Source of the DNA: Escherichia phage vB_EcoM-101112UKE3-1
Strand: one strand, 5' to 3'
Sequence record: MZ234013.1
DNA length: 64,000 nucleotides
This document shows positions 1-63,544 of the stretch, one piece after another; position 1 is the stretch's first letter, and every line of letters starts with the position of its first letter. Position numbers and translations under genes: made by a program. The notes under the pieces were generated by a model, which saw only the letters and a list, made by a program, of their open reading frames with translations, was not told where the DNA came from and searched no databases.

Positions 1-969
1 ATGAAAACTGTAACTATCAATAAGGGTATCTACTTCGGTAAAGAAATCTCTGGAACTTTTGAGCTCTTAGGTGAATGGTTCCCAGATAATGCTCCGGTAG
101 ATGCACAAGGAGATGGTAAAGTTTTTGTTGAAATTGACGGTAAGCGTCGCGGTGTTTGGGTTTACAAATCAGACATTTCATATGATGGTGTAAAAGTTGA
201 AGAAGTTAAAGAATCATATGAAGATATGAAAACCCGCATTAATAAAAGATTTAATGTTATGGGAATGATGACGAATGGTATTATTAACGGAAACATTCGT
301 TCATTAATTATCTCGGGAGCAGCAGGTATTGGTAAAACGTATTCTTTAGATAAAGCTTTAAATAAAGCAAATGATATTGGATACATTGAATATAAAAGCA
401 TTAACGGTAAAATCTCTGGTATCGGTCTTTATGAACAACTTTGGAATAATCGTGAAGAGAATTCTGTCCTTTTGATTGATGATGTGGATGTTTTCTCTGA
501 TATGGACATTCTTAATCTTCTGAAAGCTGCTCTGGACACTGGAGAGACCCGTAAAGTCTGCTGGAGCACTGCATCTTCTTACTTAGAAGAAAAAGGCATT
601 GAGCGTGAGTTTGAATTTAAAGGAACGATTGTTTTTATCACAAACGTTGATATTGACCGCGAATTAGACCGTGGTACTAAACTTGCTCCACATTTACAAG
701 CATTAGTGTCCCGCTCAGTTTATTTAGATTTGGGTGTTCACACTAATGAAGAAATTATGGTCAGGGTTGAAGATGTTATTCTTTCAACTGACATGATGCA
801 AAAGCGCGGTCTTTCTGATGAAGAAACTTATAAAGCATTATCATGGATGAAAGTCAATGTTAACCGTTTACGCAATGTTTCACTGCGTACTGCACTTTAT
901 CTTGCTGACTTTATTATGACCGACAAAAACGGTTGGCAAGAAATCGCTGAGGTTACTCTTCTGAAATAA
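1..969 (+). CDS. P-loop NTPase-like protein (conserved nrdC-distal ORF)
   Basis: 322-aa ORF beginning at window base 1; Walker A GAAGIGKT and Walker B LLIDDVD read from translation; true start may lie upstream of window. Confidence 0.6.
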   Translation: MKTVTINKGIYFGKEISGTFELLGEWFPDNAPVDAQGDGKVFVEIDGKRRGVWVYKSDISYDGVKVEEVKESYEDMKTRINKRFNVMGMMTNGIINGNIRSLIISGAAGIGKTYSLDKALNKANDIGYIEYKSINGKISGIGLYEQLWNNREENSVLLIDDVDVFSDMDILNLLKAALDTGETRKVCWSTASSYLEEKGIEREFEFKGTIVFITNVDIDRELDRGTKLAPHLQALVSRSVYLDLGVHTNEEIMVRVEDVILSTDMMQKRGLSDEETYKALSWMKVNVNRLRNVSLRTALYLADFIMTDKNGWQEIAEVTLLK

Positions 970-1059
970 ATTCATAAGAGGACTTCTATGACAAAAAGGC
1001 AGTTCAGAAATAGATTATATGGACTGCCATTAAAAAGATGACTAGAATTAAACTGGTGA

Positions 1060-1374
1060 ATGGAGGTAATGATGTTATACTCAAAGGCTCGTGAAATTTA
1101 CGAAACTAAAATTAAAGAAGCAGTATTTAAGTTCGCAACGACAATGCGATGGACAAATGACTGGGAGTATTCAAAAAATCATAAGAAGCCCATGGTGACA
1201 AGAAAGGCTCATATGTTAGTGTTAATAGACCGTGAGCAGATTAAAGCCCGAGAAGCCCTCCAGAATCATAAAAAGGCTGCCTTTGAATGGTTTATGGATA
1301 ACACTGCTCCTGAGACTAAGAAAGCGGTAAGCGCATGGTTCAGTGGAAAAAATTGTGAAAGAAGTTTCTTTTAG
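1060..1374 (+). CDS. hypothetical protein (104 aa)
   Basis: ORF track; co-directional, fills gap between neighbours; start may be an internal Met. Confidence 0.4.
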   Translation: MEVMMLYSKAREIYETKIKEAVFKFATTMRWTNDWEYSKNHKKPMVTRKAHMLVLIDREQIKAREALQNHKKAAFEWFMDNTAPETKKAVSAWFSGKNCERSFF

Positions 1375-1376
1375 TG

Positions 1377-1406
1377 GTTTACAAGACTGTTCCTCTGTGG
1401 TACTAT
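1377..1406 (+). promoter_or_regulatory. T4 early-type promoter (GTTTAC -35, TGTGG, TACTAT -10, 18-bp spacer)
   Basis: GTTTAC at 1377-1382, TACTAT at 1401-1406; followed by GGAGG and ATG 1435; near-identical cassettes at 27472 and 55797. Confidence 0.65.
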
Positions 1407-1434
1407 ACAACTATCAACTACGGAGGAACACAAA

Positions 1435-1962
1435 ATGAACGCTAAAGATATTTTCAACCTGGTAAATTACAACGATGGTAAATTTAAATCTGAAGCACAA
1501 AGCAAGTTCTTTAATGACATCTCAATCGGAGGTGAAATCACGGTTGACGGAGGACAAATTTACAAATCTCGTTGGAATTGGATCGTTATTATCGATGAGA
1601 TTGGTATTGTAGAAATTTACAAGAATACGAATAAAAAACGTACATTACACTGGTCTCGTGATACTACCGAACAGTACAAAAAGGATAAAGCATCTAAATT
1701 ATCTCGTGTAACTCAAGAAGATATTGAGTTCATCAAGAAAGATATTTTGATGTATGATAACTTAATTGCTGAAGAGCAAGCAGTTATTGATAAATTTGAC
1801 GAGATTAAAGCTTCTCGTGAAATTCCTGATTTTATGAAAGAATCAGTAAATGAACGATACACTCTCATTTCAGAGCGTATTGAAACTTACAAAAAGCAAA
1901 GAGCTGAACGCCAAAATACTCTTCGGAAGTTTGAAGAACGGTTAAAGACGGTACTCGCATAA
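1435..1962 (+). CDS. hypothetical protein (175 aa)
   Basis: ORF track; ATG 7 nt after GGAGG; preceded by early-type promoter. Confidence 0.5.
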   Translation: MNAKDIFNLVNYNDGKFKSEAQSKFFNDISIGGEITVDGGQIYKSRWNWIVIIDEIGIVEIYKNTNKKRTLHWSRDTTEQYKKDKASKLSRVTQEDIEFIKKDILMYDNLIAEEQAVIDKFDEIKASREIPDFMKESVNERYTLISERIETYKKQRAERQNTLRKFEERLKTVLA

Positions 1963-2017
1963 CCGCTTTATACCAAGGATGGTATAATGGTTCTAAGCCC
2001 TTTTAATTGAGATTATT

Positions 2018-2422
2018 ATGAAACAGTTGATAATTAAAAGATTGAATTTATTGATATGTTGTTTATGTGTAGTAGTTGCATATGGTTATTATGCAATTAA
2101 TGATTATATGCATTATAAAGATTATGATGTTACTGTAGTTAATACCCTTACAGGAACTCAAGGAAAGGGGTCTAGTTTATCGTTTATTGCCGTATATGAA
2201 CTCAAAGACGGTTATAGATTTAGTGAATATATTTCACCAGAGATGTATTCATCAATAGAAAAAGGCGATAATATTACTGTAAGTTTACGTCCTTTCGACG
2301 TAAAACAGACATTGTTTGATAATATTGTTTGGTTCTTTGGAATGGTATTAGTTCAATCTGTATGCGGTGCTTATATAGTCTTTTCCATCATATTCTGTGT
2401 ATTTAGTAAAATTGAAAATTGA
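2018..2422 (+). CDS. small membrane protein (134 aa)
   Basis: ORF track; hydrophobic N- and C-terminal segments (LLICCLCVVVAYGYYAI, IVWFFGMVLVQSVCGAYIVFSIIF). Confidence 0.5.
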   Translation: MKQLIIKRLNLLICCLCVVVAYGYYAINDYMHYKDYDVTVVNTLTGTQGKGSSLSFIAVYELKDGYRFSEYISPEMYSSIEKGDNITVSLRPFDVKQTLFDNIVWFFGMVLVQSVCGAYIVFSIIFCVFSKIEN

Positions 2423-3321
2423 GTGAGAAAAATATGTCAGTAGTAATTAATAATGTCAATGCAGTAATTAAATCTTTAGTTAATAAAAAATTAAATGAAT
2501 GGACTGTACTTCGTCGTGGAGAGCCAGATAAATTTTTTCATAGATTTAACCCAACTTTGGATTTGAATGTTATTGACAGAGATGTTCATGCTGAAATTTT
2601 AGATAAATTTAAAGTTGATATTGGGTTTGGATTAGATAAACATTTGCAACGAACAAACGGATCTGGAATGGGTTTATCTAATCGCATCATGAAAGCCCTT
2701 AATAAAATTGGAGCGTTGTCTCGTATTAATGCGAGTGAAATCCTTCGCAATTATAATAAAGGATATGACCTTTATGGTCGACTAATGCCGAAATTATCAT
2801 TTGACCAAATGATTGCGGATTTGTGGGAAAATCAACGACGATTATTAGCATTAGGCGCTCGATTAGCTAAAGGTCTAGATAAACAAATGATTTTTAAGAC
2901 CAATAATACAGAAGACCTTAAATGCTTTAAATTTAGTACTCGTGGAGATGATTATTACATCAGAGCTCGCTCTACAGATTATGTTAATATGGGGCATCAT
3001 CTCTGTTTAGCTTTTGAAGTTTTAAAAGAAGCCGGAACATTAGAATATGTGTCTGGTGCTAAATGTCCGATTGGTTCAAATTGCATTTTAATTTATCGCC
3101 CGGATGAATCCAGTTCAACTAAATTGCCTACAAAACCTGTACCAGTTCGTAGTAACGAAAAACATTCTGAACAAATTGATTATTTTAATAAACAGATTGA
3201 AGAGCTAAATATTTCTATTCAGCAATATGATGATGAAATTTTCAGACTATCTGGATTGAGTAGTAAAGCTAAATCTGAGCGTGAAAAATTAATTAAAATC
3301 GTTGATTTACTTAAATTTTAA
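2419..3321 (+). CDS. hypothetical protein, member of 4-gene tandem paralog array (C-terminal coiled coil)
   Basis: ORF track 300 aa; ATGA overlap with upstream stop; C-terminal heptad-rich tail; start could be Met at 2434. Confidence 0.5.
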   Translation: MSEKNMSVVINNVNAVIKSLVNKKLNEWTVLRRGEPDKFFHRFNPTLDLNVIDRDVHAEILDKFKVDIGFGLDKHLQRTNGSGMGLSNRIMKALNKIGALSRINASEILRNYNKGYDLYGRLMPKLSFDQMIADLWENQRRLLALGARLAKGLDKQMIFKTNNTEDLKCFKFSTRGDDYYIRARSTDYVNMGHHLCLAFEVLKEAGTLEYVSGAKCPIGSNCILIYRPDESSSTKLPTKPVPVRSNEKHSEQIDYFNKQIEELNISIQQYDDEIFRLSGLSSKAKSEREKLIKIVDLLKF

Positions 3322-3329
3322 GGAACACC

Positions 3330-4349
3330 ATGAAAACTCGTTCTCAAATTGAAGATATGGTTCGTAATGCCAGTTATACTCGTGATGTTATGACATTTTT
3401 GTGCCAAAATAATTTAGACCCTGATAAAGTTAATCGTGATATTCACTTTAAATATATGAATAGCAGTGAATGGTTACGTCATTTTAGTAAAGCGGGGTAT
3501 ATTACACAAATGACGGCTCGTGAGCAGCTCACCGATTTCTGTAAAACTATTGATTATAAAAATCCTCTATTTGTTCAAGGCGTTGGTCAGAGTAAGGTTG
3601 ATTTATCAACAGGATTTTTTAATCCAAATCATTATCGTATTGAGTGGAGATTTATTGCTCTATTCCGTAAACAATTAAAGCAAATTTTGTCGACGGCTAG
3701 TCGATTAAAAGGTTCTGATATTAACTTAAAGAATCTGAAATTTGATGGTTATACTCTTCAGATGGAAGTAAGACCATTAAAAGAAAATAACAGAACTGCA
3801 CGAATTAGCTTTAAACCTAATACAAAAAATTCTCTTTCAATTTGTGAATGCCTTAAATCACAGTTGACAGAAGCATTTAAGTATATGGATGTAGTTGCCG
3901 CGGTTCAGTCTAAGATTTTACCTCATTTTGAGCGAAATTGGGAACATACAACAACGTATGAACTTGATATGATCGTTTCATTTAAATACGATTTTTTGAG
4001 AAAGGACGAAGTCCCGCAAGAGAAAAAGCAGGAAGTGCAAGATATCTTAAATTTATCCAATTACTCATCAAACGATCCTAAATTTTGGATGTATAGTTCA
4101 GGTAATAAAGATACATGGAAATTCAATAAAGTGAATTTTCTTCCTGTTGAAAATCCGAGTCTTAAACCTGTTGAAAAATGGCACGCGGATGCGATTGAGA
4201 AGTCTATCAAGGCAGTAGATGATGAACTCGTTAAAGCAACTAATGAAGTGTTAGAAGCTGAAAAGATGCTAGAAAAAGCTCAAGAAAAAGTCAAAAATCT
4301 TACGAAGCAACGTTCTAAACTGAACAATGCACTAAATGCACTAAACTAG
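3330..4349 (+). CDS. hypothetical protein, member of 4-gene tandem paralog array (C-terminal coiled coil)
   Basis: ORF track 339 aa; shares RxEWRFIxLFRKQLKxxxSxASRLKG-type segment with next ORF. Confidence 0.55.
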   Translation: MKTRSQIEDMVRNASYTRDVMTFLCQNNLDPDKVNRDIHFKYMNSSEWLRHFSKAGYITQMTAREQLTDFCKTIDYKNPLFVQGVGQSKVDLSTGFFNPNHYRIEWRFIALFRKQLKQILSTASRLKGSDINLKNLKFDGYTLQMEVRPLKENNRTARISFKPNTKNSLSICECLKSQLTEAFKYMDVVAAVQSKILPHFERNWEHTTTYELDMIVSFKYDFLRKDEVPQEKKQEVQDILNLSNYSSNDPKFWMYSSGNKDTWKFNKVNFLPVENPSLKPVEKWHADAIEKSIKAVDDELVKATNEVLEAEKMLEKAQEKVKNLTKQRSKLNNALNALN

Positions 4350-4378
4350 TTTACTTTGCCACAAGGATGTGGTATAAT
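4349..4378 (+). promoter_or_regulatory. T4 early-type promoter
   Basis: GTTTAC 4349-4354 overlapping upstream TAG stop, TGTGG, TATAAT 4373-4378; 29/30 identical to promoter at 50954. Confidence 0.7.
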
Positions 4379-4406
4379 GTTCTTACTTTCTACTGAGGAG
4401 ATTAAT

Positions 4407-5408
4407 ATGACTCGTAACGAATATATCAAATCATTCAATAGCGTTATTGATGATAAAGTTAAACCTGTGTTTAGTCAGAATAGTGTTATTTCCATTATCA
4501 ATCAATGGCTCAATAATATTGATGCAAGTATTGTTTCTTCAAGCAAATTTATTCATGAAGTTCATAAAATTTCTAGTCGCGAATATAAAGATGATATTAA
4601 GGAAACTTTTAAAGGTTCTCGTCTTCTTTCATATTTAGTTAATCAAGATATTCTTGGTAAATTTGGGAAAGAAATTAAACGAACTAAAGATGTAGTAGGA
4701 TACAGTTGGTTCGGTGATGTTAATTCTTATCATCTTAATAATAAAGAAGACCCTGAGAATATTTTTACTCGTCGTTGGATTAGTAATTTTAGACTTTTCA
4801 AGAAGCAAATTCTAAAATCAGCTTCTAAATTATGCTATGGTGATTATCGTCAAATCCATCCTTGGGCTTCTGATATGATTATCATAAAAGAATATGAGCT
4901 TGATAAAAATAAAGCAGCTATTTTTGTGAATTATGAATTTTTTACACCAGAAGCTAATCAAAAGAACATTAATAAATTTTTCTCAATTGCTAGCGATATA
5001 ACTCGTCAGTTAGAGACCGCATTACTTTGTATGGAAACAGTAGAAAATATTCATACTTATCCTTTTAAGAATATATGCGGTTGGGAAGGATATAAAATTG
5101 TAGTTAGTCTCCGTGAAGTAAAGTGTGCGTACTCACCGACTGATAAAGAAATTTACCAACAAAAATGTGATGAAATTGTGAATACTCCTAAAGAAGAAAC
5201 TACCCTTGAGGAACTAATGGAATGTCTTGACGATTCGCCTGAACCAGTAGAAATTCGTCCAGAAGTTATTGCACTAGAAAAAGCTTATAAAGAAGTTCTA
5301 GAAATTTCTAATAAAGCGCAGAAAGAATATGAGCAGGCTAAAAAGATTTGGGAAGAATCCGTTAATCGTCTTGATCGTCTTGAACAAGCTTTACAGTTAA
5401 TTAAGTAA
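4407..5408 (+). CDS. hypothetical protein, member of 4-gene tandem paralog array (C-terminal coiled coil)
   Basis: Start moved to ATG 4407 (GAGG 8 nt upstream) because track start 4356 lies inside the promoter; 333 aa. Confidence 0.55.
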   Translation: MTRNEYIKSFNSVIDDKVKPVFSQNSVISIINQWLNNIDASIVSSSKFIHEVHKISSREYKDDIKETFKGSRLLSYLVNQDILGKFGKEIKRTKDVVGYSWFGDVNSYHLNNKEDPENIFTRRWISNFRLFKKQILKSASKLCYGDYRQIHPWASDMIIIKEYELDKNKAAIFVNYEFFTPEANQKNINKFFSIASDITRQLETALLCMETVENIHTYPFKNICGWEGYKIVVSLREVKCAYSPTDKEIYQQKCDEIVNTPKEETTLEELMECLDDSPEPVEIRPEVIALEKAYKEVLEISNKAQKEYEQAKKIWEESVNRLDRLEQALQLIK

Positions 5409-5460
5409 TTTAAAGCCAAGGATGGCTCGGAGTATAAACCATTAACCAAGTGAGAAGAAT

Positions 5461-6390
5461 ATGAAAACTCGTAAACATTATATTGATTATTTTGACAGTC
5501 TTATTACTAAACACCGTAATTATCAGATCGGACACAGAGCAGTAATCAATAATATTCTTCGTGATTTCCTTCAATATGTTGGCCAGGAAAATCATATCTG
5601 TAAAGATACTCAAAACGCTTATTCTCATTCGTTAGGCAATTTGCTTCAATGGTTTAAACGTTCTCGTCTGTTATCTTCTACTGTAGCTAGTGATAACATT
5701 AAAAACTTTATGAAGCCGAGATTCATTAAAACTGCGACATCTATAACCGATTTGGTTGAATTTACTATTGTTAACGATGTTAAAAAGACCCATTTGGCTG
5801 ATTGGTTATCTACCATTCCCGAAACTAAATTTGCTGATAAATTCGCTTGTCAATTCAATGACCAAGTGAATATGCTTTTTAAGCATGCTCGTAAACTATT
5901 TACCGCGGGCGATGACCGTACAAATACAGTTCATGTTAAGGATTGGGTTATTGCTGATGAAGTAACACACAAGCCAGGTGGTTCATCAGTATTAATTAAT
6001 ATCCAGGTTCCTTATTATTACTCACGTAATCTCGGCACCATGACAGCTAGAGAAATTAATAAGCACAACAAAATTATTCGTTCGTTGTCTTATAAACTCT
6101 GCACGATGGTGGAGATGATGGACGTAGTGGAAATGTATGACGAAACCGAAGATAATGGTTCAATGCTGTACAGTTCACGCATTCTAATTAAACTGAAGAA
6201 CCCTAATACATATAAGCAAGTTGTAAAAGAACCTAAAGTAGAAAAGGTTGATAACCTGAGTGAAGAACGTGAATATCTCAATGCTCGTTTGATTGAAGTT
6301 GAAGCCCAGATTGCCGAACACACCAAATTGTTAAAAGCTCTTAATGCAAAAGCAAATGGTTTACGTAATGCTATTGAGGTATTGAAATGA
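5461..6390 (+). CDS. hypothetical protein, member of 4-gene tandem paralog array (C-terminal coiled coil)
   Basis: ORF track 309 aa; C-terminal coiled-coil tail like the three upstream ORFs. Confidence 0.55.
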   Translation: MKTRKHYIDYFDSLITKHRNYQIGHRAVINNILRDFLQYVGQENHICKDTQNAYSHSLGNLLQWFKRSRLLSSTVASDNIKNFMKPRFIKTATSITDLVEFTIVNDVKKTHLADWLSTIPETKFADKFACQFNDQVNMLFKHARKLFTAGDDRTNTVHVKDWVIADEVTHKPGGSSVLINIQVPYYYSRNLGTMTAREINKHNKIIRSLSYKLCTMVEMMDVVEMYDETEDNGSMLYSSRILIKLKNPNTYKQVVKEPKVEKVDNLSEEREYLNARLIEVEAQIAEHTKLLKALNAKANGLRNAIEVLK

Positions 6391-6776
6391 AAAAGCGTTT
6401 ATTAGAAGACATTGCAGCTTCAAGTAATTCCAGTTTAATTAAAATTATTATGGCTGGTGAGGAAGATGATATGGAAATGCGTGGAAAGATTCACGGCTGC
6501 GACGATTTAGATTTTAAACCTCCAGCATGGGATGCTATTATGGCTATGGTTGAACGACGTGAAAGAGCTTCTAAAAACGTTCCTAATTGCCCTGAATGCG
6601 GTACTGAACAAGTTCAGTTGATTAACTGGCGTAAACCAGAGCTTGAATATAAATGCCGTCAATGTAAACATAAATTCAGTAAGCATGCTCCGGAAATGGT
6701 TAAATTGCCTGACTCTACTGAGTTCTTTAAAGAACTTGTGAGTGTTCAACCAATGCCTAATAATATTTTGGATTAA
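6387..6776 (+). CDS. zinc-ribbon protein (129 aa)
   Basis: ORF track; CPECG...CRQC four-Cys motif; ATGA overlap with upstream gene. Confidence 0.5.
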
Positions 6777-6778
6777 AA

Positions 6779-7021
6779 ATGACCAAGCGTAAAGAATATA
6801 TGGAGGCTGCTGAAAAGGCAGTCCGTGAATTAGCAATAGCTTATTATAATGAACACGGTAAATTTCCTGATAGATACAGCGTGCTTAAATCTGCTTTAAC
6901 TCGTTCATATAAAAATATGCTATCAGAAGTAAGTGATATTATATACAAACATAAAGAACAAACGGGCCAAAGTCTTGATTACGACGAGACTTTTAAACAA
7001 GTACTAGGAATTAAGGAATAA
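6779..7021 (+). CDS. hypothetical protein (80 aa)
   Basis: ORF track; tightly packed upstream of nrdC. Confidence 0.45.
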
Positions 7022-7022
7022 T

Positions 7023-7286
7023 ATGTTTAAAGTATATGGTTATGATAGCAACATTCATAAATGCGTGTATTGCGATAATGCAAAACGTCTTTTGACTGTG
7101 AAGAAACAGCCGTTTGAATTTATCAACATTATGCCGGAAAAAGGTGTTTTTGATGATGAGAAAATTGCTGAGCTTCTGACTAAACTAGGTCGTGATACTC
7201 AAATCGGCTTGACAATGCCCCAGGTATTTGCTCCTGATGGAAGTCATATTGGTGGATTTGACCAACTGCGAGAATATTTTAAATGA
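7023..7286 (+). CDS. nrdC: phage thioredoxin/glutaredoxin NrdC
   Basis: 87 aa; CVYC redox motif near N-terminus; size and sequence match recalled T4 NrdC. Confidence 0.9.
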   Translation: MFKVYGYDSNIHKCVYCDNAKRLLTVKKQPFEFINIMPEKGVFDDEKIAELLTKLGRDTQIGLTMPQVFAPDGSHIGGFDQLREYFK

Positions 7287-17013: not shown

Positions 17014-18029
17014 AAATTTTAAATTTAGGTGATTGGCATTTAGGCGTTAAAGCTGATGATGAGTGGGTTCAATCCATTCAGTTGGATGGAATTAAACAAG
17101 CAATAGAATATTCTAAGAAAAATGGAATTACTACCTGGATTCAATACGGCGATATTTTTGATGTGCGAAAAGCAATCACGCATAAAACTATGGAGTTTGC
17201 TCGTGAAATAGTTCAAATGCTTGATGATGCTGGTATTACCCTACATACTGTTGTAGGAAACCATGATATGCACTTTAAAAATACTTTAACTCCAAATGCC
17301 TCTACTGAGCTTTTGGCTAAATATCCTAATGTTAAAGTATATGATAAGCCTACTACAGTAGATTTTGACGGATGTTTAATTGATTTAATTCCTTGGATGT
17401 GTGAAGAAAATACTGGTGAAATTCTTGAACACATCAAAACTTCATCTGCTTCTTTTTGCGTTGGTCACTGGGAACTGAATGGATTTTATTTTTATAAAGG
17501 AATGAAATCTCATGGTCTTGAACCTGATTTCCTTAAGACTTATAAAGAGGTGTGGTCTGGTCACTTCCATACTATCTCTGAGGCTGCTAACGTCAGATAT
17601 ATTGGGACACCATGGACACTAACTGCAGGTGACGAGAATGACCCTCGCGGGTTCTGGATGTTTGATACAGAAACAGAACGAATGGAATTTATTCCAAACA
17701 ATACTACCTGGCATCGTAGAATTCATTATCCATTTAAAGGAAAAATTGACTATAAAGATTTTACAAATCTATCAGTACGTGTTATAGTAACTGAAGTAGA
17801 CAAAAATCTGACGAAGTTCGAATCTGAACTAGAAAAAGTTGTGCATTCATTACGAGTTGTGTCAAAAATTGATAACTCTGTCGAGTCAGATGAAAGTGAA
17901 GAAGTTGAAGTTCAATCTCTTCAGACGTTGATGGAAGAATACATTAATGCAATTCCAGACATCACTGATTCTGATCGCGAAGCACTTATTCAATATGCAA
18001 ACCAGCTATATGTAGAGGCAACACAATGA
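17010..18029 (+). CDS. 47: recombination nuclease subunit gp47 (Mre11-like)
   Basis: 339 aa; phosphoesterase motifs GDWHLG, GDIFD, GNHD. Confidence 0.95.
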   Translation: MKILNLGDWHLGVKADDEWVQSIQLDGIKQAIEYSKKNGITTWIQYGDIFDVRKAITHKTMEFAREIVQMLDDAGITLHTVVGNHDMHFKNTLTPNASTELLAKYPNVKVYDKPTTVDFDGCLIDLIPWMCEENTGEILEHIKTSSASFCVGHWELNGFYFYKGMKSHGLEPDFLKTYKEVWSGHFHTISEAANVRYIGTPWTLTAGDENDPRGFWMFDTETERMEFIPNNTTWHRRIHYPFKGKIDYKDFTNLSVRVIVTEVDKNLTKFESELEKVVHSLRVVSKIDNSVESDESEEVEVQSLQTLMEEYINAIPDITDSDREALIQYANQLYVEATQ

Positions 18030-18289
18030 CTTTTGATGAATTTAAAAATGTTATGATGAGTAAGCATTTTGAATGCGAAGTAAAAGATGATATTGGTCAT
18101 AAAGAAATTATTGAATATTGGTTTGAACCGTTAGAGGTTGAAGATAATTGTATTAAAAAGGTTACGGTCTGTACAGATTGGGCTGTATCTTTTAACTTCA
18201 ACATTTTAGATAATGACACACCTAAATCATTACGAGATATGGCTGTATCTTGTATTAAGGATGCATACTGTGAAGTTTTCGACATTTGA
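18026..18289 (+). CDS. hypothetical protein (87 aa)
   Basis: ORF track; ATGA overlap with gene 47. Confidence 0.4.
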   Translation: MTFDEFKNVMMSKHFECEVKDDIGHKEIIEYWFEPLEVEDNCIKKVTVCTDWAVSFNFNILDNDTPKSLRDMAVSCIKDAYCEVFDI

Positions 18290-53411: not shown

Positions 53412-54350
53412 ATGTACAATATTAAATGCCTGACCAAAAACGAACAAGCTGAAATTGTTAAATTGTATTCAAGTGGTAATTACACCCAACAGGAATTGGC
53501 TGATTGGCAAGGTGTATCGGTTGACACAATTCGTCGTGTTTTGAAAAATGCTGAAGAAGCTAAACGCTCTAAAGTTACTATTAGCGGTGATATTACAGTT
53601 AAAGTTAATAGCGATGCAGTTATTGCTCCAGTTGCTAAATCTGACATTATTTGGAATGCATCTAAAAAATTCATTTCAATTACTGTTGACGGTGTAACTT
53701 ATAACGCAACTCCTAATACTCATTCAAACTTCCAGGAAATTCTTAATCTGCTTGTAGCGGATAAGTTGGAAGAAGCGGCACAAAAAATTAATGTTCGTCG
53801 CGCTGTTGAAAAATATATTTCAGGCGATGTTCGAATTGAAGGTGGAAGCTTATTCTATCAAAATATTGAATTGCGATCTGGTTTGGTTGATCGTATTCTT
53901 GACTCGATGGAAAAAGGCGAAAACTTTGAATTTTATTTTCCGTTCTTGGAAAATCTGTTGGAAAACCCAAGCCAGAAAGCGGTATCTCGACTCTTTGATT
54001 TCTTGGTAGCAAACGATATTGAAATTACAGAAGATGGTTACTTCTATGCTTGGAAAGTAGTTCGCAGTAATTACTTTGACTGTCATTCAAATACTTTTGA
54101 TAACAGTCCTGGTAAAGTAGTTAAAATGCCACGTACTCGTGTGAATGACGATGATACACAAACTTGTTCTCGTGGTCTGCATGTGTGTTCTAAATCTTAT
54201 ATTCGTCACTTTGGTAGTTCAACCAGTCGAGTTGTAAAAGTTAAAGTGCATCCTCGCGATGTGGTATCAATTCCGATTGATTACAACGACGCTAAAATGC
54301 GTACCTGCCAATACGAAGTAGTTGAAGACGTTACTGAACAATTTAAATAA
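53412..54350 (+). CDS. rIIB: rIIB protein
   Basis: 312 aa; start AAGGAAAATTATGTACAAT. Confidence 0.95.
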   Translation: MYNIKCLTKNEQAEIVKLYSSGNYTQQELADWQGVSVDTIRRVLKNAEEAKRSKVTISGDITVKVNSDAVIAPVAKSDIIWNASKKFISITVDGVTYNATPNTHSNFQEILNLLVADKLEEAAQKINVRRAVEKYISGDVRIEGGSLFYQNIELRSGLVDRILDSMEKGENFEFYFPFLENLLENPSQKAVSRLFDFLVANDIEITEDGYFYAWKVVRSNYFDCHSNTFDNSPGKVVKMPRTRVNDDDTQTCSRGLHVCSKSYIRHFGSSTSRVVKVKVHPRDVVSIPIDYNDAKMRTCQYEVVEDVTEQFK

Positions 54351-54378: not shown

Positions 54379-54573
54379 ATGTTAGGTTATCAAGCACGAG
54401 TAAAAGAAGAATACGATCAATTAATGCTCAAAATTAATGCACTGAGCAAATTTTTAGAAAGCGCAAAGTTTCTAACAGTTAATGCAGTTGAGCAAGAACT
54501 GTTACTTTCGCAGTTTATCTCAATGAAATCTTATGCTGAATGTCTAGAGAAAAGAATTGCACAATTCAAATAA
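54379..54573 (+). CDS. hypothetical protein (64 aa)
   Basis: ORF track; bracketed by two hairpins. Confidence 0.4.
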   Translation: MLGYQARVKEEYDQLMLKINALSKFLESAKFLTVNAVEQELLLSQFISMKSYAECLEKRIAQFK

Positions 54574-54576
54574 AAT

Positions 54577-54598
54577 AAGGGCTTCGGCCCTTTTGTTT
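54577..54598 (+). terminator. intrinsic terminator
   Basis: AAGGGC-TTCG-GCCCTT followed by TTGTTTT. Confidence 0.7.
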
Positions 54599-54659
54599 TA
54601 AGAGAAATTATGATTTATTATATGAATACCAGTGATTCAGACATAAAAGGAAAGTTTAA

Positions 54660-55217
54660 ATGCAGAAAACGAATCCGGGGTTACAGAGACTATTTCAGAT
54701 TCCGACATTTACCCTATCGAACAGTGACTTGACTAGTGAAATGAAGGTCAAAATTGCTGATACTGCAAGATACTCTTTAAAACAAAACCCGAACCAGGAT
54801 AAAGCAGAAGTTATTGAAAGATGTCGTATTGCTGTATACGCAGAGTTTTTTGTAGCAGATTGGCTAAGCGGGTATGTTAATAAAGGTCAAGAAGATGTCG
54901 ATGATCCATATACATACGCGTGGGATGTTTTAGCACATCCAAAATACTGTGGGCTTCGTGTAGAAGTTAAGACACATCAAACTGGCTCACGTTGGATTTC
55001 TGTAACAACAGGATGCAGCGGAGAGTATCCATACGGTTCTGGAATAAATCTAGGGCCCATTCTAAATCATCAAGTCGCTGACTGTATAATTATATTCAAC
55101 ACTAAAGAAATTCATCCAGGTGTTATCCAGTACACTCCGAAGTTCATCGGTGACAGAGAAGACCTTCGTAAGGTTGTAAGAAAAAGCAACTACAATGGAT
55201 GGTATCTTTCCATTTAA
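54660..55217 (+). CDS. denB: endonuclease IV (DenB)
   Basis: 185 aa; size and position after rIIB. Confidence 0.8.
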   Translation: MQKTNPGLQRLFQIPTFTLSNSDLTSEMKVKIADTARYSLKQNPNQDKAEVIERCRIAVYAEFFVADWLSGYVNKGQEDVDDPYTYAWDVLAHPKYCGLRVEVKTHQTGSRWISVTTGCSGEYPYGSGINLGPILNHQVADCIIIFNTKEIHPGVIQYTPKFIGDREDLRKVVRKSNYNGWYLSI

Positions 55218-55235
55218 AAAAATTTTCACAAAACA

Positions 55236-55265
55236 GTTTACATACCACAAGGACCGTGGTACTAT
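55236..55265 (+). promoter_or_regulatory. T4 early-type promoter
   Basis: TTTTCACAAAAC upstream, GTTTAC 55236-55241, TACTAT 55260-55265. Confidence 0.65.
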
Positions 55266-55292
55266 ACAACTATCAGCTACGGAGGAGTAAAA

Positions 55293-55556
55293 ATGAAATT
55301 TAAATTTTATTATGCTAAACATAAAATTACCGGTGAATTTATTGCATTTACGACTTCAACTACAGATGAAGGAGATATTTTTACTGCAGTATTTTTATCA
55401 AAATGGGAATCAGATCAACCTTACTTATCATCACGTGAAGATCTCCAACGATTAGTTAATGGAGAATATAATGATTCATGGTCATATTTAGTCCATGATT
55501 GTGTTAAAAAGGCAATAAAACAAAAACACTTGGAAATCGTTGAGATTGAACTATGA
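55293..55556 (+). CDS. hypothetical protein (87 aa)
   Basis: ORF track; GGAGG then ATG. Confidence 0.4.
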   Translation: MKFKFYYAKHKITGEFIAFTTSTTDEGDIFTAVFLSKWESDQPYLSSREDLQRLVNGEYNDSWSYLVHDCVKKAIKQKHLEIVEIEL

Positions 55557-55589
55557 GTTCATTATGTTGGTGTTTTGTTTGGTTAATTA

Positions 55590-55699
55590 GTATTCCAGTA
55601 ATTTGTTTAACATTTACTTTTGTGATGAGGTTATTATGAAAATTGTATTCCAGTAATTTGTTTAACATTTACTTTTGTGATGAGGTTATTATGAAAATT
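55590..55699. repeat. perfect tandem duplication, 2 x 55 bp
   Basis: gtattccagtaatttgtttaacatttacttttgtgatgaggttattatgaaaatt at 55590-55644 and 55645-55699. Confidence 0.95.
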
Positions 55700-55789
55700 T
55701 TGAATTCTGTACTTATTGCGTGTGCATGGTGGGTTGCACAAGTTTCGGCAGTAGTGATTGGTATTCACATTTATTACGAATATTTTTAA
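55691..55789 (+). CDS. small hydrophobic protein (32 aa) starting inside repeat copy 2
   Basis: ATG 55691 with GAGG upstream; copy 1 start gives only MKIVFQ. Confidence 0.25.
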   Translation: MKILNSVLIACAWWVAQVSAVVIGIHIYYEYF

Positions 55790-55796
55790 AAAAGTT

Positions 55797-55826
55797 GTTT
55801 ACAAGACTGTTCTTCCGTGGTACTAT
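55797..55826 (+). promoter_or_regulatory. T4 early-type promoter (cassette family)
   Basis: GTTTAC 55797-55802, TACTAT 55821-55826, then CTATCAACTACGGAGGAAC leader. Confidence 0.65.
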
Positions 55827-55854
55827 TACCCTATCAACTACGGAGGAACAGAAA

Positions 55855-55968
55855 ATGAAAAAGATTGTTAAAGCTATATGGAATGTAGTTATAATACTAA
55901 TAGTTTTGAGTATATTCCCAATCGTTTTAATGATTGATGTATTAAACGTTTACTTTGGATTTATGTGA
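55855..55968 (+). CDS. small membrane protein (37 aa)
   Basis: ATG 55855 after GGAGG; hydrophobic. Confidence 0.3.
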   Translation: MKKIVKAIWNVVIILIVLSIFPIVLMIDVLNVYFGFM

Positions 55969-55975
55969 GGAAAAT

Positions 55976-56173
55976 ATGAAGCGTAAACGCAGTGCTTTTA
56001 CATTTATTGAATGGTTTTTCGATAATATTTTTCCGGCTTTATTCATTTTCATGCTGATTTTTGCCTTAGGTTCAGTTGTAGTTGGAATTTATTTGATGAC
56101 GGTAGTCGGAATGGATATTCATCAAAATGGTTTAAAATCCGTGGTTGAAACAATTTGGAATGGTGTAAAATGA
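55976..56173 (+). CDS. small membrane protein (65 aa)
   Basis: ATG 55976 after GAGGAAAAT; hydrophobic core. Confidence 0.4.
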   Translation: MKRKRSAFTFIEWFFDNIFPALFIFMLIFALGSVVVGIYLMTVVGMDIHQNGLKSVVETIWNGVK

Positions 56174-56280
56174 TGAATTTGATGAGTGGTTGGTTTTATA
56201 TTCTTATGTTTTACATTGGCGCAAATTTTCCATATTGGATGGGATGGTCAACAACTGCATTTGGATTTTATACTCCTTGA
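56170..56280 (+). CDS. small membrane protein (36 aa)
   Basis: ATGA overlap; aromatic/hydrophobic. Confidence 0.3.
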   Translation: MMNLMSGWFYILMFYIGANFPYWMGWSTTAFGFYTP

Positions 56281-56288
56281 GGTGAATT

Positions 56289-56504
56289 ATGAAAATCTTT
56301 AAAGATGTAAAAGTTGGTGAAATTTTTTGCTTGGATAGTGGTGATCAGTTAATTCGTATTTCACCTCTTAAGAGCACTAGCGAAAAAATGACAGTTAATG
56401 CTACTTTAGCAAATAACAGTAATGAACGTTTCTGTATTGAAAATGATACTGAAACTTATACCGTAGAAGAGTTTTGGGAATTGAGCGTCGACTGCGACGA
56501 TTAA
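56289..56504 (+). CDS. hypothetical protein (71 aa)
   Basis: ORF track. Confidence 0.4.
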   Translation: MKIFKDVKVGEIFCLDSGDQLIRISPLKSTSEKMTVNATLANNSNERFCIENDTETYTVEEFWELSVDCDD

Positions 56505-56564
56505 TTTAATGGCCGCGTGTATTCATGCGGCCTTGGAGTAGAAAATAATTTAGAGGAAATTAAT

Positions 56565-57023
56565 ATGAAATACATGACTGTTACTGATCTGAATAATGCA
56601 GGCGCTACTGTTATTGGTACAATCAAGGGTGGTGAGTGGTTTTTGGGAACTCCGCATAAAGATATTTTATCTAAACCTGGATTTTATTTTTTAGTAAGTA
56701 AATTAGATGGTCGTCCATTTAGTAATCCATGTGTGTCTGCACGATTTTATGTAGGTAATCAGCGTTCTAAGCAAGGATTCAGTGCAGTTCTAAGTCATAT
56801 TCGTCAACGTCGGTCTCAGCTTGCACGTACTATTGCAAATAACAATATGGTATACACAGTATTTTATCTGCCTGCTTCTAAGATGAAACCTCTGACGACG
56901 GGATTTGGAAAAGGACAGTTAGCTTTAGCGTTTACTCGTAATCATCATTCTGAGTATCAAACACTTGAAGAAATGAACCGTATGTTGGCTGATAATTTTA
57001 AATTCGTTTTGCAGGCGTATTAA
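56565..57023 (+). CDS. ndd: nucleoid disruption protein Ndd
   Basis: 152 aa from ATG 56565 (AGAGGAAAT upstream); sequence [19 protein letters not shown] matches recalled T4 Ndd. Confidence 0.85.
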
Positions 57024-57103
57024 TGAGTAATTTCCACAACGAACACGTGATGCAGTTCTATCGTAATAATCTTAAAACTAAAGGCGTCTTCGGACGCCAG
57101 TGA
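57023..57103 (+). CDS. stp: Stp peptide (activator of host PrrC/EcoprrI system)
   Basis: 26 aa [26 protein letters not shown]; ATG overlaps ndd stop; contains GGCGTC-TTCG-GACGCC hairpin. Confidence 0.8.
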
Positions 57104-57110
57104 GGAAAAT

Positions 57111-57269
57111 ATGAATATCGCAAAATTATTAGGAGTTATTTCATTTATTTGTTGGATAGTAGCATGTGTTTTAACTATCTGTATTGATGCCAGCAGTGTG
57201 TTTTCGCAAGCTTTAGCTCAGGGTATGTGTGCATATTTAACATTTGTGTTGTTATCTACTAATGATTAA
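57111..57269 (+). CDS. ac: Ac (acridine sensitivity) small membrane protein
   Basis: 52 aa hydrophobic; position between stp and 52. Confidence 0.75.
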   Translation: MNIAKLLGVISFICWIVACVLTICIDASSVFSQALAQGMCAYLTFVLLSTND

Positions 57270-57402
57270 GAAAATCTTGGGCTATTCATTAGCCCTTGCT
57301 ATTTTATTGATAGCATTATATTACGGAATAATGTTCGGATTAATTCAAGTCGTGCTTTTCATTTCTGATGTTATTATGGCACTACATTCACTAGTATGGT
57401 AA
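57262..57402 (+). CDS. small membrane protein (46 aa)
   Basis: ATG 57262 overlapping ac 3' end. Confidence 0.3.
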   Translation: MIKKILGYSLALAILLIALYYGIMFGLIQVVLFISDVIMALHSLVW

Positions 57403-57406
57403 ATTT

Positions 57407-58735
57407 ATGCAACTGAATAATCGTGATTTAAAAAGTATCATTGATAATGAAGCATTGGCTTATGCTATGTACACGGTTGAAAATCGTGCCATTCCAAATA
57501 TGATTGACGGATTTAAGCCAGTTCAACGATTTGTTATTGCTCGAGCTCTTGATTTGGCACGAGGAAATAAAGATAAGTTTCACAAACTCGCTTCTATCGC
57601 AGGCGGTGTAGCGGACCTTGGATATCATCATGGTGAAAACTCTGCGCAAGACGCAGGTGCTTTGATGGCTAACACTTGGAATAATAACTTTCCTCTGTTA
57701 GACGGTCAAGGAAACTTTGGTTCTCGTACTGTCCAAAAGGCAGCAGCAAGTCGTTATATTTTTGCTCGTGTAAGTAAAAATTTCTATAACGTATATAAAG
57801 ATACTGAATATGCTCCAGTACATCAAGATAAAGAACACATTCCGCCTGCTTTCTATTTGCCTATTATTCCTACTGTTCTTCTTAATGGCGTTTCCGGTAT
57901 TGCAACTGGTTATGCAACTTACATTCTTCCTCATAGTGTTTCTTCTGTCAAGAAAGCTGTACTGCAAGCTCTTCAAGGAAAGAAAGTAACTAAACCGAAG
58001 GTAGAATTCCCAGAATTTCGTGGTGAAGTCGTTGAAATTGATGGGCAATATGAAATTCGTGGAACATATAAGTTTACTTCACGAACTCAAATGCATATCA
58101 CTGAGATTCCATATAAGTATGATCGTGAAACTTATGTGAGTAAAATCTTAGACCCGCTTGAAGATAAAGGCTTCATTACATGGGATGATGCTTGTGGTGA
58201 GCATGGCTTTGGCTTCAAAGTTAAATTCCGAAAAGAATACTCTTTGAGCGATAATGAAGAAGAACGCCATGCAAAAATTATGAAAGACTTCGGGTTGATT
58301 GAGCGTCGTTCCCAGAATATTACCGTCATTAATGAGAAAGGAAAGCTGCAAGTTTACGATAATGTAGTTGATTTAATCAAAGACTTCGTTGAAGTTCGTA
58401 AAACTTATGTCCAAAAACGAATTGATAACAAAATCAAAGAAACTGAATCAGCATTTCGTTTAGCTTTTGCCAAGGCACATTTCATTAAGAAAGTAATTTC
58501 AGGTGAAATTGTTGTACAAGGTAAAACTCGCAAAGAACTGACCGAAGAACTTTCTAAAATTGATATGTATTCTTCTTATGTTGATAAACTAGTTGGAATG
58601 AACATTTTTCATATGACTTCCGACGAAGCAAAGAAACTTGCTGAAGAAGCTAAAGCCAAAAAAGAAGAAAACGAATATTGGAAAACTACTGATGTAGTTA
58701 CAGAATACACCAAAGATTTAGAGGAAATCAAATGA
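57407..58735 (+). CDS. 52: DNA topoisomerase II medium subunit gp52
   Basis: 442 aa; GyrA-like N-terminal domain; size and position. Confidence 0.95.
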   Translation: MQLNNRDLKSIIDNEALAYAMYTVENRAIPNMIDGFKPVQRFVIARALDLARGNKDKFHKLASIAGGVADLGYHHGENSAQDAGALMANTWNNNFPLLDGQGNFGSRTVQKAAASRYIFARVSKNFYNVYKDTEYAPVHQDKEHIPPAFYLPIIPTVLLNGVSGIATGYATYILPHSVSSVKKAVLQALQGKKVTKPKVEFPEFRGEVVEIDGQYEIRGTYKFTSRTQMHITEIPYKYDRETYVSKILDPLEDKGFITWDDACGEHGFGFKVKFRKEYSLSDNEEERHAKIMKDFGLIERRSQNITVINEKGKLQVYDNVVDLIKDFVEVRKTYVQKRIDNKIKETESAFRLAFAKAHFIKKVISGEIVVQGKTRKELTEELSKIDMYSSYVDKLVGMNIFHMTSDEAKKLAEEAKAKKEENEYWKTTDVVTEYTKDLEEIK

Positions 58736-62764: not shown

Positions 62765-63544
62765 TTATACTCTTGGACCGTATATTGCTCCAACATTTTG
62801 CCATGTTGGAGCGGACCCTATGACAGCATAACCAGCAGCTCCGCCGTTATATTCTGCACCGTTACCATGAGTATTACATCTTCCTCCAGCAGCACCAACG
62901 TTACCGCCCGCACCGCCTGTATATGCACTAAGAGACCCATTACCGACAGATCCTGCACCCGGAGCGTAAATGGTGCCAGCGGTTGCGCCTGTATTCATAC
63001 CAATAGATCCGCCAGGTGCACCAAACGGACGCCCACCGCCGCCGCCAAATACTAGTCGACCCCTGTTACCGCCGCCACCGCCGCCACCGCCGCCTGCAAT
63101 AGCTCCACCATTATTAATTCTTAGTCTCCCACCAATATCGTTTTGAATACAATGACCTCCAGCTGAGCCAGGACTATCCATACCGCCATTACCGCCACGT
63201 CCATACATCGTTACGCCGTGTATATTCAGCTGAACATATTCATTCGGTGTATCTCCATACATGAAGAATAAAGGAACATCTCTAGAATATGATACTAAAT
63301 CACCTGTAATATTAAACACTATAGGTGCATTACCTGCCTCAAAACATCTATCTCGGAACCATTGACCATTGAAGTTATGGTCTGCTCCAAGCGTGTGAAT
63401 AATTTCTCGTGAGCGACCTGCAAATTGACTCATCCAGCAAGGAACACCCAATCTTAATTGACCAGCCGCTTGACTCATCCAGCGCTGACCCGTTTCATTT
63501 ACGGATGAACTTCCAATCCAACCGGGAACACCAACTACTGCCAT
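62765..63544 (-). CDS. 38: long tail fiber adhesin gp38 (T2-type)
   Basis: 259 aa from ATG (complement 63542-63544; track ORF starts at TTG 63556); glycine-rich motifs including a 9-Gly run. Confidence 0.85.

Follow-up and report, generated by a model that had tools for sequence, protein, structure and literature searches.

The stretch of DNA analysed here, called the window throughout, is 64,000 nucleotides long and belongs to a T4-like (Tequatrovirus) genome. Along its plus strand, rIIB (53412–54350) is followed by denB.1, denB (54660–55217), an ORF of 87 amino acids (55293–55556), a group of small ORFs, ndd, stp, ac and topoisomerase gene 52 (57407–58735), and the T4 synteny denB ... ndd.6, ndd.5, ndd.4 ... 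ndd is kept. Two of the small ORFs, both intact, both predicted to be membrane peptides and both named from the T4 annotation, lie at the site of interest: ndd.6 (55553–55639, plus strand) encodes 28 amino acids, of which 27 are identical to T4 ndd.6, and matches phrog_8851 over its full length; ndd.5 (55691–55789, plus strand) encodes 32 amino acids (MKILNSVLIACAWWVAQVSAVVIGIHIYYEYF), of which 31 are identical to T4 ndd.5, and matches phrog_5011 over its full length. A Pfam search of ndd.6, ndd.5 and ndd.4 gave no match, and PHROGs alone recognises these small ORFs. Annotation of the small genes near ndd.6 is inconsistent across records; ndd.6 itself is unannotated in the records of many relatives (for example JK08 and G3G7) despite a conserved ORF and a phrog_8851 match.

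The 87-aa ORF (plus strand; phrog_2390) has a stop codon that overlaps the start of ndd.6, and it served as our anchor for retrieving independent contigs. It lies between denB and ndd.6 in the window and in most relatives and is deleted in T4, where an 8-codon piece joining its start to its end remains (ATGAAAATCGCTGAGATTGAACTATGA). The neighbouring denB locus is dimorphic: some genomes, including the window, carry a denB of 185 amino acids, and others carry a denB of 158 amino acids after a DUF7418 ORF of 109 amino acids. A consensus scan returned two early-promoter-like sites on the plus strand as pattern matches, one at 55237–55265, of the T4 type and placed for a transcript of the 87-aa ORF, ndd.6 and ndd.5, and the other at 55798–55826, directly 3′ of ndd.5.

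A perfect 55-bp tandem at the ndd.6/ndd.5 overlap

Where ndd.6 adjoins ndd.5 lie two 55-bp units, head to tail and identical at 55 of 55 positions (55590–55644 and 55645–55699, plus strand). The exact period-55 run measures precisely 110 bp (55590–55699) and extends by 0 bases into either flank. It is the sole exact repeat of at least 25 nt in the 64-kb window, and no third copy of the unit was found anywhere in the window; Tandem Repeats Finder (TRF) gave it a score of 223, against 54 for the runner-up array. An identity of 55 nt within 64 kb is beyond chance.

Within each unit are the final 50 nt of ndd.6 with the TGA, a GAGG Shine-Dalgarno (SD) sequence and the first nine nt of ndd.5, and the unit terminates in TGAGGTTATTATGAAAATT; no complete gene lies inside it. 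The TGA of ndd.6 overlaps the ATG of ndd.5 as ATGA, and the same overlap is present in T4. Copy 1 stands in its native context, with the ndd.6 3′ end, the SD and the nine nt ATGAAAATT of ndd.5, and in alignment it pairs with the one copy of T4 and of Shigella phage JK08. Copy 2 is 55 bp extra with respect to every relative; it holds the tail of ndd.6 without a promoter or a start and gives the SD and ATG used by the intact ndd.5 ORF. At the junction between them (55639–55650) AAAATT meets GTATTC with 0 bp of microhomology, the flanks being TTATGAAAATT on the copy-1 side and GTATTCCAGTA on the copy-2 side, and it is here that we propose the ends of a raw circular contig were joined.

These observations bear out what a sequence-only reading of the window had described: a perfect head-to-tail tandem of 55 bp, units that end in SD and start codon, and a position in the plastic small-ORF region upstream of ndd. 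The translational outcome was also as it had claimed, with the start in copy 1 (55636) giving MKIVFQ-stop and the start in copy 2 (55691) giving the 32-aa peptide. What that reading had missed is the upstream 28-aa ndd.6, whose 3′ end makes up most of the unit. The MKIVFQ mini-ORF (55636–55656, plus strand) is spurious: in translation, it is the copy-1 start of ndd.5 running into copy 2, and it owes its existence solely to the junction. Folding of the single and duplicated forms with ViennaRNA gave an unpaired probability of 0.41 for the copy-2 SD versus 0.29 in the single-copy form. Strong sequestration of the SD by the duplication was considered as a mechanism and set aside, the folding changes being modest and uninterpretable.

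Relatives and sibling records

Base-level alignment to T4 and to JK08 showed that the window differs from both by one clean 55-bp insertion that copies the adjacent sequence. When a 751-base query was compared with the phage collection, all of the 60 best matches listed covered 693–697 bases of the record, ~55 fewer than the query. We then searched 50,697 phage records for the junction itself by megablast and blastn. An 80-base query centred on the junction matched in one piece in none of the 493 phage records that hold the locus (0/493), and in every case it aligned as two overlapping pieces. A single-copy version, for which the sequence-only reading had looked to related genomes, is thus what all 493 records carry, some of them 99.9% identical to the window in the flanks. 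The same holds for 10 of 10 independent contigs from GenBank genomes and ENA metagenome assemblies that encode an identical 87-aa ORF: each has the unit once and lacks the junction, and the distance from the 87-aa ORF to the next anchor gene is 628 nt in these contigs vs 683 in the window. Finally, an exact search for a 34-mer across the junction in viral, genome and metagenome contig collections found it absent from all three. Across these collections, the duplication is private to a single sequence.

The identity of the two copies had been taken as a sign that the duplication is very recent. That argument does not hold by itself: because relatives differ by only 1–2% at this locus, zero divergence says little about age, and we rejected it as a clock, since 55 bp at 1–2% divergence predicts about 0–1 differences anyway. 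The best overall relatives of the window are ~98.4% identical to it. Stronger evidence than zero divergence comes from three features of the sequence, namely the lack of the duplication in all relatives, the exact 55-bp size of the unit and a junction devoid of microhomology.

The start of the window is informative about how its record was prepared. The first ORF (1–969, plus strand; 322 aa) has its ATG at base 1, and more than 20 GenBank Tequatrovirus records, namely the MZ2340xx series and UPWr_E2, begin at the same base; UPWr_E4 is offset by one base. A first base that is a conventional gene ATG common to so many records means that the assembly was rotated, and therefore that its raw ends have become internal to the genome. 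UPWr_E1 (PP418985), which we considered alongside these, is a Krischvirus and unrelated to the window. In the MZ2340xx records the first ten CDSs (nrdC.x region; 1–7023 in G3G7) are named 'thioredoxin', which looks like annotation spill-over, and the ATG of the first CDS so labelled coincides with base 1 of the window.

The MZ2340xx genomes are SPAdes 3.13/3.14 assemblies of MiSeq reads, and the methods of the series include manual work in Geneious (PMC8614997). Three records of this kind differ in length: G3G6 has 168,522 bp, CHD2BS1 168,577 bp (+55) and G3G7 168,649 bp (+127). These increments of +55 and +127 prompted a test of the siblings for tandems. MZ234040.1 (vB_EcoM-G3G7) contains one perfect tandem in the whole record, with a period of 127, at 66463/66590 (66463–66716). 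It falls inside the long-tail-fibre gene 37, for which this record annotates two CDSs that overlap and together span 3,115 nt; the same gene in CHD2BS1 is a single CDS of 2,988 nt, and 3,115 − 2,988 = 127. Because the insertion frameshifts the essential gene 37, a phage that forms plaques cannot truly carry the tandem. Just one copy is present at this site in the clone records G3G6, G3F6 and CHD2BS1, in which gene 37 is intact, and among the matches listed G3G7 alone has the 127-bp tandem in one piece. The G3G7 tandem is an untrimmed k = 127 overlap.

MZ234027.1 (vB_EcoM-CHD2BS1) in turn carries a perfect period-55 tandem at 18015/18070 (18015–18124), where the stop of gene 47 meets the start of the next gene. 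With one copy removed, CHD2BS1 shows 0 mismatches to G3G7 over 44.9 kb, and among the matches listed no relative, not even a clone, has more than one copy at the site of the CHD2BS1 tandem. One phage is thus represented by two records with differing perfect tandems (55 and 127 bp) at unrelated sites. These sibling tandems extend beyond the repeat by just 1 and 2 bases, as chance gives.

The likeness of the two sibling tandems to that in the window is close: all three are in Tequatrovirus records with the same base 1, and each is a perfect tandem of two copies, private to its record, with a unit of exactly 55 or 127 bp. CHD2BS1 shares a further feature, in that its tandem also covers an overlap of gene end and gene start and duplicates an SD plus ATG. 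Because this second tandem hits such an overlap too, the apparent duplication of SD and start codon in the window is a coincidence of gene density. The siblings differ from the window in locus, and the G3G7 tandem breaks an essential gene and is a self-evident artefact, whereas that of the window is not.

Origin of the second copy

Taken together, the sequence evidence points to an untrimmed assembler overlap: at a probability of about 0.9, we read the second 55-bp copy as the end-overlap of a circular SPAdes contig, assembled at k = 55, that was kept when the contig was rotated. By default SPAdes uses k values of 21, 33, 55, 77, 99 and 127, the largest being 55 for shorter reads and 127 for long reads, and when a de Bruijn assembler outputs a circular path in linear form, the first and last k bases of the contig coincide. 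Repeats of ~55 bp on circular contigs from SPAdes have been documented (PMC12509680), and the terminal k-mer overlap is widely used as a signal of a 'circular contig' and is meant to be trimmed.

Applied to the window, the route would be as follows. A T4-like genome is circularly permuted, so a short-read assembler would close it into a circle, which SPAdes would output as a linear contig whose first k bases equal its last k bases; the first and last 55 nt of the raw contig would both have been GTATTCCAGTAATTTGTTTAACATTTACTTTTGTGATGAGGTTATTATGAAAATT. The submitter would then have rotated the contig to the ATG of a chosen gene, and joining its ends without trimming one copy of the overlap would yield K+K, an exact two-copy tandem of 55 bp. 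Such a tandem would fall at an arbitrary interior site, in this instance by chance the ndd.6/ndd.5 overlap, so that SD and start codon would seem to be duplicated. We infer that the window stems from the same SPAdes pipeline as its siblings; its record was presumably made at k = 55 from a raw contig that ended at the repeat.

What we found is consistent with this account: the two copies are 100% identical, the unit length equals an assembler k value (55), the sequence was rotated after assembly to place a gene ATG at base 1, as in more than 20 records, the tandem is private to one record (0/493 records, 0/10 contigs and 0 matches in three collections), and like defects occur in the MZ2340xx pipeline (55 bp in CHD2BS1, 127 bp in G3G7). 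The window resembles documented SPAdes and metaSPAdes circular-contig overlaps in having two exact copies, a unit of the length of a default k (55), a genome that is circularly permuted and a site that is arbitrary with respect to the genes. It differs in that the known copies sit at both contig ends and those in the window are adjacent and internal, as rotation of an untrimmed contig yields.

The principal rival is a genuine and very recent duplication, (nearly) neutral, that arose in the phage stock by illegitimate recombination or by template switching during T4-type replication. Several observations would accommodate it: with the ndd.6 and ndd.5 ORFs both intact the phage would tolerate the event, the predicted folds leave the copy-2 SD without dramatic occlusion, and the region is variable in T4-like phages (T4 lacks the 87-aa ORF, and denB occurs in two forms). 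Both small genes survive, so viability provides no argument against a real event here, unlike in the case of the 127-bp tandem of G3G7. T4 forms duplications readily, and its tandem amplifications join at microhomologies of 6–10 bp, or of 2–10 bp in rII (PMC9391042). The well-known T4 cases (rII, Hp17 and the dmd-tifA amplification) are like the window in being head to tail, in a T4-type genome and in a non-essential early region; they are unlike it in their microhomology of 2–10 bp, in being usually gene- to kilobase-sized, in often having more than two copies and in arising under selection, as against 0 bp of microhomology, a 55-bp unit and exactly two copies in the window. The endpoints here share no 2–10 bp stretch of which one copy is kept at the junction, and some illegitimate events, such as those mediated by topoisomerase, do not require one. 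Against a real event also stand the exact 55-bp unit, which would be a coincidence where an untrimmed overlap leads one to expect 55, the lack of the duplication in every record, contig and collection searched, and the siblings with a common start convention that bear k-sized artefacts, one of which would be lethal if real. We therefore regard a genuine duplication as improbable. Thus, where the sequence-only reading had offered either a very recent duplication or a sequencing or assembly artefact, the second half of that choice is the one that the evidence favours, in the specific form of a k = 55 overlap retained after rotation.

The remaining explanations appear less probable still. The extra copy might have come from another technical source, with contigs or reads that overlap by 55 bp merged uncollapsed, whether manually or by a scaffolder (in Geneious, for instance), or from a different assembler run at k = 55. 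This would leave the same signature as an untrimmed SPAdes overlap, so that sequence alone gives no distinction between the two, and the manual Geneious work in the series would fit it; we nevertheless consider it a slim prospect, as the common route on record is the circular-contig overlap, which explains the exact 127 of the sibling. A functional repeat, whether a regulatory RNA, a leader peptide (MKIVFQ) or a selected variable-number tandem repeat, has in its favour the SD and ATG in each copy and nothing further. Relatives never have more than one copy, so the repeat is neither conserved nor variable in number among them; a search of 54500–57500 against Rfam at E ≤ 1 found no family; and the candidate leader peptide arises only from the junction. 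A functional role is accordingly a negligible possibility.

Were the improbable case of a real event true, it would be a de novo, microhomology-independent duplication of 55 bp in the phage stock that uncouples the ATGA-linked translation of ndd.6 and ndd.5. The loss of direct termination-reinitiation coupling at the ATGA is the only effect predicted: ribosomes would end the mini-ORF ~35 nt before reaching the start of ndd.5, whose translation would depend on its own GAGG SD. With a 6-codon mini-ORF inserted between ndd.6 and ndd.5, such a duplication would amount to a natural experiment on how translation is coupled among the small ORFs of this T4 region.

With an untrimmed assembler overlap as the preferred reading, the 55-bp tandem is almost certainly not a real feature of the phage and of no biological importance. 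The record probably overstates the length of the genome by 55 bp, which matters as data hygiene: the spurious junction invites false gene calls (a 48-aa ORF with a TTG start and the 6-aa mini-ORF) and false evolutionary stories. A check for exact two-copy tandems with units of 55, 77, 99 or 127 bp brought two more faulty GenBank records to light, of which that of G3G7 falsely splits gene 37, a tail-fibre gene that determines host range. Scanning databases for perfect k-sized tandems would be a cheap quality filter for phage genomes.

Other observations in the window

Two further features of the window were recorded in the course of this analysis. The early-promoter-like sites described above each belong to a cassette of early promoter plus 5′ leader, and the two near-alike cassettes, at 55237–55292 and 55798–55854, bracket the ndd.6/ndd.5 pair. 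Both follow the pattern gtttaca...gtggtactat...ctatca[ag]ctacggagga...atg, and they resemble the repeated promoter modules that are thought to drive small-ORF shuffling in T4-type phages. The other feature concerns the hypervariable gp38 adhesin, encoded on the minus strand (62765–63544). Exact look-up of its sequence in a large protein collection, with two alternative starts, returned no match, which suggests a novel adhesin variant; within the gene, three consecutive copies of ACCGCCGCC at 63068–63094 encode part of a poly-glycine motif.
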